A DNA stretch of 64,000 bases from Candidatus Poribacteria bacterium (GTDB lineage Bacteria; Poribacteria; WGA-4E; WGA-3G), in assembly GCA_022826805.1 (NCBI GenBank), contig JAJDUH010000044.1, forward strand, positions 92,862 through 156,861. The letters are read 5' to 3'. The notes below the pieces were generated by a model. That model had not been told where the DNA came from and did no database searches. It worked only from the letters and a program-made list of their open reading frames with translations. The stretch's first letter is position 1; the number at the start of each line of letters is the position of its first letter. Both the position numbers and the translations under genes were made by a program. Positions 10,977 to 60,306 of the stretch are shown here, in pieces.

Positions 10977-11465
10977 TTAGCGAAAAGAGAAGTTTGTCGT
11001 TAAATTTTTTACTAAAACGCCTTCCCAGATACCGGGTTCCCTTAATCGGTCTAATCTTACAAGCAAAATATCTTCATTCGTTATGACACGTCCAAGCTCC
11101 GGGGTTATACCTGGAGCAGCCTCAGCAAGAACGATCTGAATAAGAATTGAGTCGTTAATTTCTAATACCAATGTATAGTAGTATGCAAATGTCTTTTGAT
11201 TAATACTTTTTCGTCTATAATCGGATTTAGCTCTATCCAATTTACCGCTGATATACTCGCCTTGAAAATCAGGTAAACATTCAATAATGGGTTCAAGTAG
11301 GTTCTCTGACGAGTTGTTATTTTCGTTATTATCTCCCTGAGCCAGGTTATTATCTTCCTCAGCCCCTGTTGGCGGAACAGGAAATATCGGGTCATCCCTG
11401 TTCTGCGAAGTACAGGCAATAACGCAACACATCAACAGACACAGGCACAAAGCGTTGTATAGCAT
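10977..11465 (-). CDS. small lipoprotein, unknown function
   Basis: The 162-aa ORF has a lipobox (CCVIACTSQN). Its RBS, start and signal peptide nearly duplicate those of the next gene at the DNA level. Confidence 0.7.
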   Translation of the reverse strand: MLYNALCLCLLMCCVIACTSQNRDDPIFPVPPTGAEEDNNLAQGDNNENNNSSENLLEPIIECLPDFQGEYISGKLDRAKSDYRRKSINQKTFAYYYTLVLEINDSILIQIVLAEAAPGITPELGRVITNEDILLVRLDRLREPGIWEGVLVKNLTTNFSFR

Positions 11466-11473
11466 ACGACCTC

Positions 11474-12556
11474 CTACTGATTAATAAGCGTAAATGTATA
11501 GCGTATCGTAACACGTCTACTAATTGGTTCTCCACTCCATATAGCAGGATAGAAAATCGTTTTCTTCAACGCCTGAATCGCTGCTTCCTCCAGTCCAAAT
11601 CCGAGGTCTGTGAGTGCTACAATGTCTATCGGAATGCCCTTCTCATTGATAGTCGCTGCTAAAACGACTTCACCTATTTTGTCCGCGTTCTTTGCGTCCT
11701 CTGGATATTTCGGATCGACTTTGAATTTGTATTGGGGACCGGCTACCTCAATATGAGGATCGTAGTCAATACCACTCGCTCTGCTGACAAGTTCTGGAAT
11801 CCCTGACTCAATTCTGCTGGTTTGTGATCGCACTTGACGCGGTATATTCAGAGTGGGTGCCTGATAAAAGTTCAATCCAAAGCGATACAGCAATTCCGAA
11901 CTCTCGAACGAGAACTCAATACTCCCGATAGCACTCATCGTCTGGGACATCTCAAGTTCTACTCCCGCTTCGCCGGTAAAGAAATTCTGTGACGTGTTCA
12001 AATGCACTTGCTTAGTTGTAGAGACGTTATTCCACGCCTGCGTATAAAACATCCCAAAAAACGGTTTCAGACTCCACTCATAGTCTGTCTGTAGAATATG
12101 TAAAAAGCCTGCCCCCCCTCGGAGTGCCATGTTCACGGCGTGCAGCGGTAAGTTTCCAGTCCTAACAACATTCATATACTGCGTTCTAAAACCGCCCAAT
12201 ATGAAAAATTTCAAACCTGTCATGTTCATATCGTTGACGTTTAAAAGGCGAATATCAATAGAAGGACTCGGTGCTATCTCGTAGGGATTTTCGGTGTTAG
12301 CCTCAAAAAAAGAGACACCGGGCAGCAGCGATACCTTCAGATCACGGCTAAACGTATAATCGAGATTGCCTAAGATCGTTTGTGCACTAAAGCGGAAGGG
12401 GGCCTCGCTGCGTTTCGGAGGTCTATAACGTTGGTATCCCATACCAATTGCCATCTTTCCAGCTGGTAATCTATGAAAACCTGTCTGTGCAGATACGGAC
12501 ACGGAAAACATTACAAGTACAAAAAACAGGACAAAACCAAGAATTCGCTTATTCAA
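11474..12556 (-). CDS. TonB C-terminal domain protein with N-terminal beta-rich (outer-membrane-like) region
   Basis: The C-terminal 90 aa are TonB-C-like (PKYPEDAKNADKIGEVVLAATINEKG...IRYTFTL). I prefer a TTG start at 12556, with AAGGAG 10 nt upstream, giving the signal peptide NKRILGFVLFFVLVMFSVSVSA. The track ORF extends to 12616. Confidence 0.7.
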   Translation of the reverse strand: MNKRILGFVLFFVLVMFSVSVSAQTGFHRLPAGKMAIGMGYQRYRPPKRSEAPFRFSAQTILGNLDYTFSRDLKVSLLPGVSFFEANTENPYEIAPSPSIDIRLLNVNDMNMTGLKFFILGGFRTQYMNVVRTGNLPLHAVNMALRGGAGFLHILQTDYEWSLKPFFGMFYTQAWNNVSTTKQVHLNTSQNFFTGEAGVELEMSQTMSAIGSIEFSFESSELLYRFGLNFYQAPTLNIPRQVRSQTSRIESGIPELVSRASGIDYDPHIEVAGPQYKFKVDPKYPEDAKNADKIGEVVLAATINEKGIPIDIVALTDLGFGLEEAAIQALKKTIFYPAIWSGEPISRRVTIRYTFTLINQ

Positions 12557-12979: not shown

Positions 12980-13063
12980 AAAATGTAAGGCAAAGACAAA
13001 TTTTGCGGCGTAAATCAGAATCAAAATCAACGGTATGAATGCCTTATGGCATGAACTGCGGGC
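12980..13063 (+). repeat. H-family mosaic hairpin element, copy H1 (modules AATGTAAGGCAAAGACAAATT + AATCAGAATCAAAATCAACGGTAT + hairpin GAATGCC-ttat-GGCAT)
   Basis: Modules are shared with the copies at 14634, 17706(-), 30865, 33429, 54329(-) and 60157(-). Confidence 0.75.
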
Positions 13064-13116: not shown

Positions 13117-13758
13117 TTACATTGCGGTTTCATATGTGAGGTAGTAGTATCCAGATGCCTCAACGACCTGTGTACTTGCTAACCCTACAGCTTCCTTGAA
13201 AAACGGGGCATCTAATACCCACGTGTGGTATTCACCTTGTTCTCCGCAAAGATCAATTGGTAACTGCTTTAACTCTAAGATGAGTTCCGCATCCAAATAT
13301 CTACCGGCGATAGTAGATTGGAAATATTTTTTGTAGGCGAGAGAGCAGACGACTTTAAATTGGTTGGCGATCAGTGTCTCTAATATCGCCTCCCGATCCA
13401 ATTCCCACAGCGGTTTATCAACATCCACCAAACCGGCAGCGACGCCATCAATCCAATTGGGCATTCCATCCACAATAGAAATGTCCCCGGTAATCAATAC
13501 TTCAATCCCATTGTCTCTTATAGTCTTAATTTGTTGACGATAACTCAATTCATAAGGCTCAGAAATCGGCATGAATTCAATAGGAATCCCGATTTTTCGC
13601 GCTTGTAAGGTCATGAGTTGTGTCGGGTGTGCATAGAATTGCCGGTTATCTGCTGGGACAAAACAGACAAGCCGCCTTATATCGTAAAGATTTAAGGAGA
13701 CTTGAAGTGCAAGGGCAGAATCTTTCCCACCCGTCCACAGGACCGCTGCTTGCTTCAT
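13117..13758 (-). CDS. PP-loop ATP pyrophosphatase, Dph6/MJ0570-like (DUF71) family
   Basis: The PP-loop is WTGGKDSALAL, and the family motif GEQGEYHT is present. Confidence 0.8.
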   Translation of the reverse strand: MKQAAVLWTGGKDSALALQVSLNLYDIRRLVCFVPADNRQFYAHPTQLMTLQARKIGIPIEFMPISEPYELSYRQQIKTIRDNGIEVLITGDISIVDGMPNWIDGVAAGLVDVDKPLWELDREAILETLIANQFKVVCSLAYKKYFQSTIAGRYLDAELILELKQLPIDLCGEQGEYHTWVLDAPFFKEAVGLASTQVVEASGYYYLTYETAM

Positions 13759-13771
13759 AATATTGCTAAAA

Positions 13772-14539
13772 TTATCCGTCTAAAGGTACTACATCAGCAT
13801 AGACGTATGTGGGCGAGGTGTTGTTTCGTGAGTGAATTTTGTCATCCTTGTCTTTAGCAGAGACAATATCCCTCTGAACAACCTGACCCGGTTTCGCGGC
13901 AACAGGCGAACTAAACATAGGTCCATCAACGACACATGTATGGAATTCACCGTTTTCGCCGAGTGGATCCACGCCATCTGGCAAATCTGCAAGGAGGTCA
14001 GCATCAAACCATCGTCCCGCAAAGTTGGCAGGTACCTTGGTAGGATTGAGTGCTGTGACAATCGCGCGCATGCCAGAGGTAATCATTTTTTCAGCAAGCT
14101 GGGTAGTATCCTCACCCCATACCGGAAAGATCGGTGTGAAGCCAGTTCCTTTGAGTTTATCCTCGCGGTATTCACGGATGTCTTCGAGGAACAGATCCCC
14201 GAACGCGAAATGTGATGCTCCCAAATGCTCAGGCAACGCTTCTACCTCGGCAAGAAACTTTCGCATCGCTGCCTCGTAAATTGCATTAGAACACGGATAA
14301 GGAATTGGTATCTCGTACAACGGCACCCCAAGCTTCTCAGATTGCTGTTTCAGCACCCACGCCGGCGTAGAGTGAATAGACACACGGTCAAACGTCTTTG
14401 TGACGGTGGTAAAGATACCGCGCACGTCATAGTGGTCCGGCTGCTGCCGTAGCGTATGTAGTGCCCATGCGGAATCTTTACCAGAAGACCAAGAAACCAA
14501 AACCGGCATGGGTGTTGTTTCGTTCGTCTGCTTTGTCAT
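13772..14539 (-). CDS. PP-loop ATP pyrophosphatase, Dph6/MJ0570-like (DUF71) family, tandem paralogue
   Basis: The PP-loop is WSSGKDSAWAL, and the family motif GENGEFHT is present. Confidence 0.8.
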   Translation of the reverse strand: MTKQTNETTPMPVLVSWSSGKDSAWALHTLRQQPDHYDVRGIFTTVTKTFDRVSIHSTPAWVLKQQSEKLGVPLYEIPIPYPCSNAIYEAAMRKFLAEVEALPEHLGASHFAFGDLFLEDIREYREDKLKGTGFTPIFPVWGEDTTQLAEKMITSGMRAIVTALNPTKVPANFAGRWFDADLLADLPDGVDPLGENGEFHTCVVDGPMFSSPVAAKPGQVVQRDIVSAKDKDDKIHSRNNTSPTYVYADVVPLDG

Positions 14540-17575: not shown

Positions 17576-17620
17576 GCAAAAAAAACACCTTATGCTGCCG
17601 GGCTCGGTGTGCATAAGGCT
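17576..17620 (-). terminator. strong intrinsic terminator 45 nt upstream of hisI (candidate attenuator)
   Basis: In minus sense the sequence is CCTTATGC-15 nt-GCATAAGG followed by GTTTTTTTT (A8 on the plus strand at 17578-17585). Confidence 0.7.
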
Positions 17621-17669
17621 TCAATAGGATTTAAAAATAAAAAACGACGATCTTCAATCTCTGTTTTAG

Positions 17670-17810
17670 TTATCCATTTGAGCGCACACTCCCCAGCAAG
17701 CAATTGGAATGCCACCAAATTCTGCCCACACGGGCAGAATTTGTCTTTGCTTCACATTGCCAATGTTCGGATACGCTGTGCAAGTTGGAGTGTGAACGTA
17801 CAAGTGTCAT
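17670..17810 (-). CDS. candidate 46-codon leader ORF containing Trp-Trp-His (speculative)
   Basis: I translated the minus strand by hand as MTLVRSHSNLHSVSEHWQCEAKTNSARVGRIWWHSNCLLGSVRSNG. The WWH codons lie at 17709-17717. The Shine-Dalgarno is weak, and the ORF overlaps an H-family repeat copy. Confidence 0.3.
   Translation of the reverse strand: MTLVRSHSNLHSVSEHWQCEAKTNSARVGRIWWHSNCLLGSVRSNG
17706..17760 (-). repeat. H-family element, copy H7 (AATGTGAAGCAAAGACAAATT + hairpin AATTCTGCCC-gtgt-GGGCAGAATT)
   Basis: The module matches H1 at 19 of 21 positions. A perfect 10-bp stem is present. Confidence 0.65.
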
Positions 17811-17889
17811 GTTTATCACTCTTTGCAAATAGATCAACAACTGTTAAATACGCGCCTTCATCTGTGTCGCATTTCAAAGACTGACATTA

Positions 17890-17918
17890 ATAATAACACA
17901 TCTGCCTTACATTGTCAA
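17890..17918 (-). promoter_or_regulatory. sigma70-like promoter for the hisI-trpEG leader
   Basis: In minus sense the sequence is TTGACA, a 17-nt spacer, then TGtTATTAT. Confidence 0.55.
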
Positions 17919-18000: not shown

Positions 18001-18021
18001 ATATGTATTACAATCGAATAA

Positions 18022-18215
18022 GCTGAACGGTTCAGGTGCCGGAAAAGCCGGAGAATAGGGAAGCGCGGTGAGAATCCGCCACGGCCCCGCCACTGTGAAC
18101 GATCATAAATATCCACTGAAAAAACCACTGTCAATTTACTGATGGGAAGGTTCAGCGGACTTTTGTAGGTGCAAACTACGTAAAAGATCGGAAGTCAGGA
18201 GACCTGCCTGAATCG
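18022..18215 (+). promoter_or_regulatory. cobalamin (B12-element) riboswitch aptamer
   Basis: The core is AATAGGGAAGCGCGGTGAGAATCCGCCACGGCCCCGCCACTGTGA, which includes the B12 box. Also present are CCACTG...GGGAAGG and GTCAGGAGACCTGCC. P1 is TTCAGG (18031-36) paired with CCTGAA (18207-12). Confidence 0.9.
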
Positions 18216-18355
18216 CGTTTCACACATCTGCTTTCGCGGGAAAGCAGTGGAACAGCGCGCAGCAATATCCTGTTAGACTACGGATCAAATACCAGCATAA
18301 GGTATGGAATTCTCACACATCATTACAGGATAAGACTTACACAGAATGTCGCCGT

Positions 18356-18414
18356 CCCCTCTGCTTCTCGGAGATGCTTGCTACAAAAAGCCACGAAAGC
18401 AGGGGTTTTTTGTT
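18356..18414 (+). terminator. riboswitch expression-platform terminator
   Basis: CCCCT(ct)GCTT pairs with AAGCAGGGG and is followed by TTTTTTGTTT. It ends 18 nt before the ATG at 18432. Its arms are also complementary to the hairpin at 18228-18247. Confidence 0.6.
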
Positions 18415-18431
18415 TCATTACGGAGGTTTTG

Positions 18432-19775
18432 ATGAACAAAGTTTTTTTCGCCTGGCGGCATTTATTGTGTTCACCATGTCACAAACCACTCTCACTCCTA
18501 CTTACAGGTATATTACTCCTAACGCTTCTCGTTAGTCCTGCCCTTGGACAAACAGAGGTACAAGACCTGGCGGTTGTCATAAATGCCTTGACACATCCCG
18601 ACTTGGGTATCACCGCTTCACTTTCACTCATCAATCAGGTGGAACCGAATGAAAGACGGGCGGTCGACAATGAAATACTCCGCTTCGGGATTGATCCTAT
18701 ACTGCGGCGGCGCGCAATTAGCCTCTCCATTCGTGGACATCTCGCGTATGTCCCGACTTTCAACTTACCCGTCACCGGCGGCACAAGTTCCGGCGACAAC
18801 ATCTTTATCATAAATTTGGAAGACCGAGAGTTTGTCGGCGAAATCCCGATCCAAGCGGGTACAACTCCGCAGCAGATCGCTTTCGTCAACGATCAGAAAC
18901 TATACGTCACGTGTGCAGCAACACATGAAGTGCATGTCGTTGACATTCCTAACCGTAACGTAACGAAGATTCTGACCGGCTCCTTCAACAAACCGACGGG
19001 CATCACGCTACTCAACGGCAAAGCTTACGTTTCAAATCCCGCATGGGAGTGGGATCCCGCTGCTGGGAAAGTAAACTATTACGATAGCACTGTCACAGTG
19101 ATTGATACGGAAACAGATTTCGTGTTGAAATCCATACCAGTGCCAACAAACGCAAGCACAATTGTTAACGATGGCGACTCTACCGTCATTCTCAAAACAA
19201 CTGGGAATTATAATGACATCCTGGGGCATCTCATTCTGATTGATACAGCGACCGATGAGATTGTCGAAACAGTTAAACTCGATTTCACGCCTGGCTCCAT
19301 CGCCCTTAATTCACAAAAGCAGCTGTTTATGCAAGGAAGCTGGCAAAATCCAGGTTTGCTCATTTACGATGTTGCAGCACGAGACTGGATCCGTGACGAA
19401 GACGATCCGATCGCTAATTTCAGCGACGATGCAGATGCGCCTATCAGCGGTTCCTTGGCTTTCGCACCCGATGGAAATCTCTATATCGCCAAGCCCGACT
19501 GGGGCGGCAGCGGGCAGGATTTCGTGCGCGTTATGAACGTGATAGATGCATCTCTTCTGAAAACCTATCACGTTGGACCCGGCGGCTCCATTGTCGGATT
19601 TGCACAGATCATTCCGCGCCCCGAAGATGTAAACAACGATGGATTTGTCAATGAGGCGGATTTAGTAATCGCGAGCCGGTTCTTGGGGGACGAGGGTCCC
19701 GGATTAGTCGCTGATGTCAATGGAGACGAAGTAGTCAATGTTCTTGATTTAGTGCTGATAGGTCAAGGACTCTAA
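18432..19775 (+). CDS. secreted beta-propeller (YVTN/YncE-like repeats) protein with C-terminal dockerin-like repeats
   Basis: GGAGG lies 5 nt upstream of the ATG at 18432. A signal peptide is present (LLLTLLVSPALGQ). Repeated blades are seen (KLYVTCAATHEVHVVD, KAYVSN.., VTVIDTETD). The C-terminus has DVNNDGFVNEADL and DVNGDEVVNVLDL. Confidence 0.8.
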   Translation: MNKVFFAWRHLLCSPCHKPLSLLLTGILLLTLLVSPALGQTEVQDLAVVINALTHPDLGITASLSLINQVEPNERRAVDNEILRFGIDPILRRRAISLSIRGHLAYVPTFNLPVTGGTSSGDNIFIINLEDREFVGEIPIQAGTTPQQIAFVNDQKLYVTCAATHEVHVVDIPNRNVTKILTGSFNKPTGITLLNGKAYVSNPAWEWDPAAGKVNYYDSTVTVIDTETDFVLKSIPVPTNASTIVNDGDSTVILKTTGNYNDILGHLILIDTATDEIVETVKLDFTPGSIALNSQKQLFMQGSWQNPGLLIYDVAARDWIRDEDDPIANFSDDADAPISGSLAFAPDGNLYIAKPDWGGSGQDFVRVMNVIDASLLKTYHVGPGGSIVGFAQIIPRPEDVNNDGFVNEADLVIASRFLGDEGPGLVADVNGDEVVNVLDLVLIGQGL

Positions 19776-38702: not shown

Positions 38703-38775
38703 GGATCGGTGCGGAATGTAAAGCTAAGACAAATTGCGCTTTAATACCACAATTTGAAACCGCTCCTACCAGTGG
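38703..38775 (+). repeat. B-family (GTAGG-stem) palindromic element, copy B1
   Basis: The copy GGATCGGTGCGGAATGTAAAGCTAAGACAAATTGCGCTTTAATACCACAATTTGAAACCGCTCCTACCAGTGG is about 88 percent identical to 60235-60306 by eye. Confidence 0.8.
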
Positions 38776-54212: not shown

Positions 54213-54297
54213 TGGGCGAGGAGGGACTTGAACCCTCACGAGGCGTAACCCCAATAGATCCTAAGTCTATCCTGTCTACCAATTCCAGCACCCGCCC
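54213..54297 (-). tRNA. tRNA-Leu (anticodon TAG)
   Basis: I hand-folded the cloverleaf. The acceptor is GGGCGGG/CTCGCCC, the anticodon arm is ATAGA-CTTAGGA-TCTAT, a long variable arm is present, and the T-arm is GAGGG-TTCAAGT-CCCTC. Confidence 0.9.
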
Positions 54298-54328
54298 AAA
54301 TTTTGTTCCACGGACTCTCACTGCGAGA

Positions 54329-54484
54329 CCGGGGAATGCCATTAAGGCATTCATACCCGGTAAAGCCTTTATAGGCTTTATACCCGGGGAATGCTTTATA
54401 GCATTCATACCGTTGATTTTGATTCTGATTTACGCGCATTCCGCTGTTGGTTGACGCGGCAAAATTTATTTTTCCCTTACATTC
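54329..54484 (-). repeat. H-family element, copy H5 (full mosaic: AATGTAAGGG... module, leader, three hairpin modules)
   Basis: The reverse complement aligns module by module with H1 and H3. Confidence 0.8.
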
Positions 54485-54502
54485 GTCCTAAATTATAAGG
54501 AT

Positions 54503-54575
54503 TGCGCCGTGAAGGAATCGAACCTTCAACCGCCTGATTAAGAGTCAGATGCTCTGCCAATTGAGCTAACGGCGC
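54503..54575 (-). tRNA. tRNA-Lys (anticodon CTT)
   Basis: Hand-folded. The acceptor is GCGCCGT/ACGGCGC, the anticodon loop is CTCTTAA, and the T-arm is GAAGG-TTCGATT-CCTTC. Confidence 0.9.
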
Positions 54576-54664
54576 GTCTGTTGTCTGTCTTTAATACCGA
54601 GACACATTTTATACGCATCCACTCTTAACTCTGGTGCGATAGGTCCTCGGTACTCCATTAGCAA

Positions 54665-54705
54665 TGCGCCGTGAAGGAACCGAACCTTCAACCGCTATTA
54701 ATGTC
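54665..54705 (-). pseudogene. 3' half of a tRNA-Lys copy (no D-arm or 5' acceptor)
   Basis: TGCGCCGTGAAGGAACCGAACCTTCAACCGC matches the 3' 31 nt of the tRNA-Lys gene with one mismatch, and similarity decays into the anticodon loop. Confidence 0.7.
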
Positions 54706-54772
54706 CGTATTCACCTGAACGCCCCTTCCCAGTAACGGGCAGGGTGCCGGGTAGCCCCCGGATACGAATGAA

Positions 54773-54845
54773 GGTGGATGATGGGATTTGAACCCACGAC
54801 CACTTGATCCACAGTCAAGTGCTCTACCCCTGAGCTACATCCACC
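54773..54845 (-). tRNA. tRNA-His (anticodon GTG, encoded G-1)
   Basis: Hand-folded. G-1 plus GTGGATG pairs with CATCCAC, and the anticodon loop is CTGTGGA. Confidence 0.9.
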
Positions 54846-54878
54846 ACATGCTGACGCTGCCTTGAGCCGTATGAAAAG

Positions 54879-54952
<74 letters not shown>

Positions 54953-54981
54953 TTGTGTTAAAAACCTTATTCTGTTTTGAG

Positions 54982-55056
54982 TCGGGGCGAGAGGATTCGA
55001 ACCTCCGACCTTCTGCTCCCAAAGCAGACGCGCTAGCCGGGCTGCGCTACGCCCCG
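54982..55056 (-). tRNA. tRNA-Pro (anticodon TGG)
   Basis: Hand-folded. The acceptor is CGGGGCG/CGCCCCG and the anticodon arm is TCTGC-TTTGGGA-GCAGA. Confidence 0.9.
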
Positions 55057-60234: not shown

Positions 60235-60306
60235 GGATCGGTGCGGCATGTAAAGCTAAGACAAATTGTGCTTTAATAGCACAATTTCAAACCGCACCTA
60301 CTGGTG
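60235..60306 (+). repeat. B-family (GTAGG-stem) palindromic element, copy B2
   Basis: The outer stem is GGTGCGG...CCGCACC and the inner perfect hairpin is AAATTGTGC-tttaat-a-GCACAATTT. It lies 18 nt from the sulfatase stop. Confidence 0.8.

Follow-up and report, generated by a model that had tools for sequence, protein, structure and literature searches.

We analysed a stretch of 64,000 nucleotides (nt) from a contig of Candidatus Poribacteria (JAJDUH010000044.1, positions 92,862 to 156,861; hereafter the window), with attention to the leader region that precedes the genes hisI, trpE and trpG on its minus strand. Judged from its sequence and from modelled RNA folds, this leader is most likely an attenuator of the ribosome-mediated (leader-peptide) type, which would control transcription of hisI-trpE-trpG. 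Four features typical of this class were found: a promoter-proximal open reading frame (ORF) enriched in Trp and His codons, a terminator, an antiterminator that excludes it and a spacing of codons and RNA segments that suits a ribosome. The arrangement is more than a chance one, because it is conserved in related genomes.

The leader region in the window

The original prediction, made from the letters of the window, had described on the minus strand a promoter TTGACA-17-TATTAT with a TG extension, a 46-codon ORF with consecutive Trp-Trp-His codons, and a strong intrinsic terminator ahead of histidine and tryptophan genes. Inspection of the region located all of these in the places described, and the downstream genes were recognised by protein family models. 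The features, listed in the direction of transcription, are as follows.

17918-17890, minus strand: sigma-70-type promoter TTGACA-17-(TG)nTATTAT, with 11 of 12 matches and the TG extension; the best sigma-70-like site of the intergenic region
17810-17670, minus strand: leader ORF of 46 codons, from ATG at 17810 to TAA at 17672-17670; translation MTLVRSHSNLHSVSEHWQCEAKTNSARVGRIWWHSNCLLGSVRSNG
17794-17787, minus strand: segment 1, CACACUCC, codons 6-8 (Ser-His-Ser); pairs with segment 2 over 8 perfect base pairs (bp) and would be an anti-antiterminator
17765-17760, minus strand: codons CAT TGG for His16-Trp17, the 5' half of a split H-W-H-W-W core, from the sequence and the homologue alignment
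about 17757-17719, minus strand: in-frame, stop-free insertion of 39 nt, specific to the window in the alignment of leaders; a copy of a short interspersed repeat
17717-17709, minus strand: codons TGG TGG CAT for Trp32-Trp33-His34, the proposed stall site; TGG TGG is retained in nearly all homologues
17715-17706, minus strand: segment 1', GUGGCAUUCC, which overlaps the Trp codons and could take the place of segment 1 in pairing with segment 2, according to the RNAalifold consensus of clade A, one of the two main clades of homologous leaders; -9.5 kcal/mol
17697-17682, minus strand: segment 2, GCUGGGGAGUGUGCGC, 5' strand of the antiterminator by pairing and fold, with its GUGUGC core at 17689-17684
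17672-17670, minus strand: leader stop codon TAA, at which a ribosome would mask the GUGUGC core
17619-17578, minus strand: intrinsic terminator (segments 3:4), a 9-bp stem plus an inner 3 bp, then G and U8; hairpin of -15.7 kcal/mol
17613-17597, minus strand: segment 3, UGCACAC (17613-17607) and CCCGGC (17602-17597), the top of the terminator 5' arm and the loop; partner of segment 2 in the minimum-free-energy fold
17530-17150, minus strand: hisI (phosphoribosyl-AMP cyclohydrolase), first structural gene; passes the NCBIfam NF000768 cut-off
16964-15459, minus strand: trpE (anthranilate synthase component I); TIGR00564, 602.7 bits against an NCBIfam cut-off of 517.7
15376-14720, minus strand: trpG (glutamine amidotransferase component II); accepted by the subfamily model TIGR00566 (trpG_papA), reaching no equivalog cut-off

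Transcription would start near 17883. The leader ORF has His at codons 7, 11, 16 and 34 and Trp at codons 17, 32 and 33, and its 39-nt insertion carries a perfect 12-bp hairpin (17743-17716, -20 kcal/mol). A motif of about 21 nt together with a hairpin recurs near 38715 and 60248 and, more weakly, near 12990. The caveat in the original prediction that the ORF overlaps a copy of an 'H-family repeat' could be verified in part only, namely in that the insertion shares motif and hairpin with these other sites of the window. The repeat itself consists of the motif ATGTrAAGCwAAGACAAATT followed by a variable hairpin and is found at 17716-17757, about 38715-38760, 60248-60295 and 12985-13015; the copies at 38715 and 60248 are both intergenic and have about 70 nt in common.

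The terminator stem is formed by GCCUUAUGC (17619-17611) and GCAUAAGGU (17595-17587), with the inner pairing CCG:CGG and with G and U8 at 17586-17578. A simple terminator pattern scan, whose loop limit was 8 nt, missed this hairpin; the palindromic insert, on the plus strand, was all that it picked up. From the U-tract to hisI there are 47 nt, and AAGGAG, the ribosome-binding site of hisI, begins 34 nt past the U-tract. Since a promoter scan of the window revealed no promoter-like site in these 47 nt and the gap is short, hisI is most likely transcribed through the terminator.

Folding of the RNA revealed two mutually exclusive states. The RNA from 17702 to 17578 has as its minimum-free-energy structure a long antiterminator of -36.0 kcal/mol, which combines GCUGGG:CCCGGC, GUGUGC:GCACAC and GCUCAA:UUGAAGC and from which the terminator is absent. 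This is the pairing that had been proposed for CUGGGGAGUGUGC with GCACAC..CCCGG; the reservation that it would be modest applies to most homologues and fails in the window, where the antiterminator is strong. The RNA from 17668 to 17578, as left by a ribosome that sits at the stop codon and masks GUGUGC, folds into the terminator. On its upstream side, segment 2 pairs with segment 1 in a duplex of -16.2 kcal/mol, or -9.4 kcal/mol when the cost of the loop is included.

Homologous leaders and conserved pairings

Contigs were inspected for ten Poribacteria HisI protein clusters of 76-92% identity (loci are designated by L numbers). HisI relatives in this range numbered at least 120 among the matches listed, several of them labelled Poribacteria by their source. 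A scan of the genome collection with TrpE gave at least one Poribacteria locus among the matches listed, and the closest genome locus among them belonged to a Candidatus Poribacteria metagenome-assembled genome whose TrpE is 83% identical. All ten clusters have hisI and trpE together, and in most of them trpG is directly next; the exceptions are the L085 group, which has an extra ORF, and L088, L092/L093, L096 and L098, where no trpG lies within reach. A homologous leader was found in the 200-300 nt upstream of hisI in nine of the ten. A metagenome scan, whose pattern was derived from the RNA switch and not from the ORF, yielded 53 matches, mostly due to chance, and five genuine leaders. Searching with the leader alignment, nhmmer detected a single copy in the window and no leader in 79 trpE loci of other phyla, its matches lying only in Poribacteria-type loci.

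The ORF is conserved as a frame. All of 18 distinct leaders have an ATG and one open frame, while the other two frames contain stop codons in 17 of them. The ORF has 46 codons in the window, 25-35 in most homologues and 45 in L111; examples of the peptides are MKYIRSHSSLHRNSNHWHWWCSNSIKEECAR (L001), MLFSDLHLSLHSTTHNWHWWRFQFR (L083) and MQTRNRQPQFQIVFHHWHWWWCVEGSGVPLLR (L085). Most leaders have three or four Trp codons, and L081 and L111 have two. The original prediction had called for W and H codons kept in frame among orthologous leaders, and this is what the nine HisI clusters contain: Trp at codons 17, 19 and 20 (the first at 17 in most) with flanking His, in both main clades, A and B, as part of a core H-x-W-H-W-W at codons 16-20. 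The Trp positions hold though codons 2-15 are unalignable between the two clades. Up to the end of the Trp cluster, insertions and deletions have lengths divisible by three (39 nt in the window; 3 nt and 6 nt in clade B). L096, with 5 nt inserted, is the exception; the single nt inserted in L083, L084 and L095 falls past the Trp codons. Several of the contigs are long-read assemblies, in which single indels may be errors. Variability is flat across codon positions 1-3 (0.22, 0.18 and 0.21), and the peptide would therefore not be under ordinary protein selection, as expected of a regulatory frame.

A promoter of the layout TTGACA/TTTGCA-17-GGTATYAT lies upstream of every homologous leader. In most loci the U-tract is followed after 15-50 nt by the hisI ribosome-binding site and after about 25-50 nt by hisI itself; in L090 these distances are about 85 and 95 nt. 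The 5' untranslated region (UTR) and the spacer past the stop codon are not conserved among the leaders. In L111, positions 11000-11640 hold a complete leader-like unit with promoter, an ORF starting MIFLRSHSNLHS, the GGAGTGTGCGC motif and the same terminator; its Trp-Trp core is replaced, neither hisI nor trpE follows, and an ABC exporter gene begins about 300 nt downstream, so that the unit may be either a relic or a redeployed attenuator. In L153 (1256-5957), a methyltransferase gene splits hisI from trpE and a DDE transposase gene splits trpE from trpG.

The promoter and the terminator of the window, both strong, enclose some 300 nt, and such a unit could in principle be an independent gene for a small RNA or a small protein, with a constitutive terminator and with hisI-trpEG expressed by other means. 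The L111 copy, standing without hisI or trpE after it, would suit such a gene, as would the trp attenuator of Sinorhizobium meliloti, whose terminated RNAs and leader peptides act in trans (PMC6614838, PMC7298713). We nevertheless consider this explanation very unlikely. The window has no promoter-like site ahead of hisI past the terminator, the gap is short in most homologues, and hisI-trpE or trpE accompanies the unit in every case, the relic in L111 aside. Between the clades, moreover, the peptide is poorly conserved outside the Trp and His codons and the pairing segments. A role in trans would add to attenuation and not replace it, and an independent small RNA would leave the in-frame conservation unexplained; alongside attenuation, by analogy with S. 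meliloti, such a role is possible.

The pairings of the proposed attenuator are conserved at the level of RNA. Towards the 3' end of the ORF, the nucleotides of the motif GGAGUGUGCGC are kept while the reading frame over them differs among leaders, and in L083 and L095 the motif lies past the stop codon, which indicates a constraint on the RNA and not on the peptide. In the terminator (3:4), 96.9% of the alignment cells are paired, and two pairs change from U-A to G-C between the clades, in agreement with RNAalifold. The 7-bp core of the antiterminator (2:3), GUGUGC(G/C):(U/G)GCAYAC, is paired in 100% of the cells. Both helices change jointly: where a base of segment 3 that they share turns from U to G in clade B, its terminator partner turns from A to C and its partner in segment 2 from G to C. 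This three-way change fits what alternative pairing predicts from the sequences. The 1:2 helix of clade A, CACACUCC:GGAGUGUG, has 8 bp and 91.5% of its cells paired. In clade B, upstream pairing of segment 2 was seen only with the Shine-Dalgarno region of the leader. We also considered, and set aside, an outer helix that would join the terminator loop to the purines 5' of GUGUGC; it is strong in the window, but in a fixed register across homologues it is paired in only 56% of the cells.

Another explanation would be a switch operated by a small ligand, a tRNA or an RNA-binding protein (riboswitch-, T-box- or TRAP-like), in which the ORF would be incidental. The 1:2 helix of clade A encloses a conserved hairpin and the loop nucleotides UUGCAUAG, which are possibly aptamer-like; the leader ORFs have weak Shine-Dalgarno sequences, and the flat codon-position variability is no ordinary protein-coding signature. 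On balance such a switch appears unlikely. Segment 1 and the hairpin are missing from clade B and L113, whose leaders nevertheless retain the ATG, the open frame, Trp at the same codon positions and a stop beside segment 2. No indel upstream of or in the Trp cluster interrupts the frame, the 5-nt insertion in L096 excepted, and the 5' UTR and the post-stop spacer are not conserved. No Rfam family matched the leader at threshold, in the window or at six homologous loci; at gathering and permissive thresholds, only the neighbouring plus-strand cobalamin riboswitch and tRNAs matched. The Rfam Trp_leader model (RF00513) scored 14.5 bits in the window, against a gathering score of 41 (E = 8.6), and found no match in the six loci. 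The T-box covariance model likewise gave none, with E-value limits of 10 for the window region and 1 for the six loci. As to TRAP, (G/U)AG repeat arrays are lacking: no run of four (G/U)AG triplets at 2-nt spacing occurs anywhere in the window.

Proposed mechanism and a possible histidine input

Under the leader-peptide attenuator that we favour, events would follow the general mechanism and race model described for trp and his leaders (PMC1183508). We infer from the conserved elements that the ORF is translated, where ribosomes would stall, the timing of these events and any response to Trp or His. Transcription would begin at the promoter at 17918-17890, and the 46-codon leader would be translated as the RNA emerges. 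When charged tRNA-Trp is plentiful, the ribosome would reach the stop codon at 17672-17670 and cover segment 2, GUGUGCGC (17689-17682); segment 3 would then pair with segment 4, and the resulting terminator at 17619-17578 would end transcription ahead of hisI. When charged tRNA-Trp is scarce, the ribosome would stall at the Trp codons at 17717-17712 and 17762-17760. Its leading edge, at about 17700, would leave segment 2 free to pair with the top of the terminator 5' arm and the loop once these are made, so that no terminator could form and transcription would read through into hisI-trpE-trpG. Without translation, or after release of the ribosome, segment 2 could be taken up by segment 1, CACACUCC, or segment 1', with termination as the default.

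The geometry of the homologous leaders is consistent with this scheme. The last codon of the Trp-Trp pair ends 16-27 nt ahead of GUGUGC, and the stop codon starts between 8 nt before and 17 nt after the start of GUGUGC. With ribosome footprints of the sizes assumed from E. coli, a ribosome at the Trp codons frees segment 2 and one at the stop codon covers it. In folds cut off before segment 4, the 2:3 helix was in the minimum-free-energy structure of all 20 leaders with the ribosome at Trp-Trp and of none of the 20 with the ribosome at the stop codon. Equilibrium folds of whole leaders with a 30-nt footprint were also tried and did not discriminate, the terminator being the minimum-free-energy structure in both states.

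Several observations weigh against the attenuator or narrow its support. With regard to energetics, in leaders other than that of the window a free segment 2 still leaves the terminator 5-12 kcal/mol more stable than the antiterminator, and the switch there would have to be kinetic. Segment 1 would be left uncovered when a ribosome stalls at the Trp codons, and in equilibrium folds the 1:2 helix can form around the footprint in 5 of 20 leaders. This helix has one-sided changes only and fares no better than shuffles, and clade B has neither segment 1 nor segment 1'. For single leaders, the 2:3 complementarity is mostly not significant against shuffles (z about -0.3 to -3), and the joint changes between the clades amount to essentially one evolutionary event. 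Four leaders derived from metagenomes were found through a pattern that demanded GUGUGC and GCAYAC. As to translation, the leader ORFs have a Shine-Dalgarno sequence of weak to moderate strength (GAG, GGAAG or AAAGG in A-rich surroundings) next to the AAGGAG that serves hisI, which bears out the reservation on this point in the original prediction, and the ORFs of L096 and L152 are frame-shifted. Finally, the L092/L093 lineage has no leader. In these two loci (L092 1649-2000 and L093 1698-2000, HisI 81% identical), tandem GC-rich palindromic repeats (GTAGGGCGAGGGCCTGTCCCTCGCC... and CGCGGGGGACAGGCCCCCGCG) fill the region upstream of hisI in place of the leader.

Through the His codons beside its Trp codons, the leader may also sense histidine, which would fit an operon that contains hisI. 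An attenuator that reads the charging of both tRNA-Trp and tRNA-His through interleaved H-x-W-H-W-W-H codons is a tentative proposal, to which we would give somewhat less than an even chance. Most peptides linked to hisI have 3-5 His residues (about 10-16% of residues), and L081 and L094 have two; His16 and His18 are common to both clades. In L113/L144 a homologous leader lies directly ahead of trpE-trpG, and hisI is absent. Among the 28 residues of the leader peptide, MQTRWPRSKVISCVKRWWYTSWGRSVPV, there are four Trp and not one His, both His codons of its relatives having been replaced; the hisI-linked relatives L085 and L153 have HHWHWWW and HHWRWW, respectively. This contrast suggests a second, His input, with the thin support of a single lineage. 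Further relatives without hisI were sought, and the association of His codons with hisI was not strengthened, since L152 (a relative at 91% identity) has a frame-shifted leader and L153 has hisI.

It is about equally plausible, and likewise short of an even chance, that the attenuator responds to Trp only, that hisI is co-regulated with trpEG by Trp and that the His codons are by-products of constraints on the RNA. CAU before UGG would supply the AUUGG of a local hairpin with CCAAU, and CAC would lie inside segment 1. The AUUGG:CCAAU pairing is indeed 92% kept in clade A, and His7 falls within the CACACUCC helix. Codon 16 is NAT in most clade A leaders, encoding His, Asn, Asp or Tyr (CAT, AAT, GAT or TAT) and so keeping AT ahead of TGG, with ACG in L095; such variation suggests a constraint at the RNA level and not a need for His, and counts against the His input. 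So do the hisI-linked L081 and L094, each with just two His codons, and Trp codons are in general far more conserved than His codons. The Trp-only explanation in turn has to contend with His18, and to a lesser extent His16, which persist in clade B in the absence of CCAAU and segment 1, with the synonymous changes from CAT to CAC at His 7, 11 and 18 (L096 and L098 included), and with the high proportion of His in most hisI-linked peptides compared with its absence from L113/L144. If the two-input attenuator is correct, codon content would track operon content in evolution, His codons having been lost where hisI left (L113/L144). It would then be a natural case of attenuator 'programming' by codon choice over two unrelated pathways, in a candidate phylum without genetics.

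Genomic context and relation to known systems

Within the operon, the 185-nt spacer between hisI and trpE yielded no intrinsic terminator and no second leader. The true start of trpG is probably downstream of the listed GTG, as family matches begin at residue 32. After trpG, two adjacent paralogues of the Diphthamide_syn_2 / PP-loop ATP pyrophosphatase type follow in the same orientation (13117-14539, minus strand); a PP-loop-related gene sits divergently upstream of hisI in L083. A sigma-70 promoter at 12959-12931 (minus strand; TTGACA-17-TATAAT, a perfect 12/12) lies upstream of a TonB/ExbD-like block and likely marks the end of the hisI-trpEG transcription unit. On the other side, the cobalamin riboswitch (18017-18225, plus strand; Rfam, 105.6 bits) is divergent from the leader promoter and separate from the attenuator. 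It precedes and controls the gene of a beta-propeller/dockerin protein (18378-19775). Such a riboswitch is also present upstream of hisI in L088 and farther upstream in L083. Five tRNA genes are clustered at 54213-55056 (minus strand).

If our interpretation holds, Candidatus Poribacteria, whose members are uncultured and mostly associated with sponges, join the phyla with classical leader-peptide attenuation, and hisI-trpE-trpG would be expressed through ordinary read-through of the leader terminator. Annotators gain a conserved, previously unannotated small ORF and its terminator. The mixed His/Trp core and its natural variants (joint loss of hisI and His codons, an in-frame repeat, a leader replaced by repeats, and a relic copy before a different gene) would form a compact system for studying the gain and loss of attenuator inputs.

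The closest likeness is to trpL of E. coli and Salmonella. Both systems have a short promoter-proximal ORF with adjacent Trp codons and a terminator ahead of the structural genes (trpE in trpL); in both, segment 2 has two possible partners, an upstream segment and the terminator 5' arm, and the stop codon is placed so that a ribosome can mask segment 2. The switch would be largely kinetic in both, with the terminator as the stabler helix: in the E. coli trp leader, too, the terminator is more stable and the choice is kinetic. The Poribacteria leaders differ in their peptides, which at 25-46 codons are two to three times longer than the 14 codons of E. coli trpL, and in having no sequence or covariance-model similarity to it. 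Their Trp codons have His codons interspersed among them and are placed between segments 1 and 2, outside the strongest segment 1; the operon opens with hisI, and the phylum is another one. Leaders that mix the regulatory codons of more than one amino acid in a single peptide are familiar from the multivalent attenuators of enterobacteria, such as thr, with Thr and Ile codons, and ilvGMEDA, with Ile, Leu and Val codons. The amino acids of those leaders come from linked pathways, whereas His and Trp in the Poribacteria leader come from different pathways that share an operon, and the role of His is putative.

In Sinorhizobium meliloti, the trpL/rnTrpL/peTrpL leader-peptide attenuator stands before a separate trpE(G) unit (PMC6614838). 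The Poribacteria leader resembles it in fronting such a unit and not a whole trp operon; the two sequences are unrelated, the trans roles have been demonstrated for S. meliloti, and the Poribacteria unit adds hisI and His codons. Leader-peptide attenuators have also been predicted by comparative genomics in Actinobacteria (PMC1262725), and a further survey is that of Lopatovskaya et al. 2010, as cited in PMC4833913. These predictions in other phyla belong to the same class, and nhmmer found none homologous to the Poribacteria leader. Among the loci of our own collection, candidate leader ORFs with WW to WWWW precede trpE in Syntrophales and Gemmatimonadaceae, in agreement with the published surveys, and the WWW and WWWW candidates of Syntrophales are followed by U-runs. 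In 16 loci of other phyla (among L002-L080; Planctomycetia, Verrucomicrobia, Actinomycetota and Acidobacteria), trpE has hisI as its immediate upstream neighbour, and no WW or WxW leader ORF was found upstream of hisI in these 16.

The TRAP and Trp T-box leaders of B. subtilis share with the Poribacteria leader the choice between terminator and antiterminator in a trp leader. The latter has no (G/U)AG repeats or T-box match, and its conserved element is instead a reading frame. Literature searches returned no attenuator described for Poribacteria and no His/Trp leader for hisI-trpE. As judged from the sequences, the Poribacteria leader is thus most likely a classical trp-type attenuator in mechanism, where it holds no surprise, and a new family in sequence.

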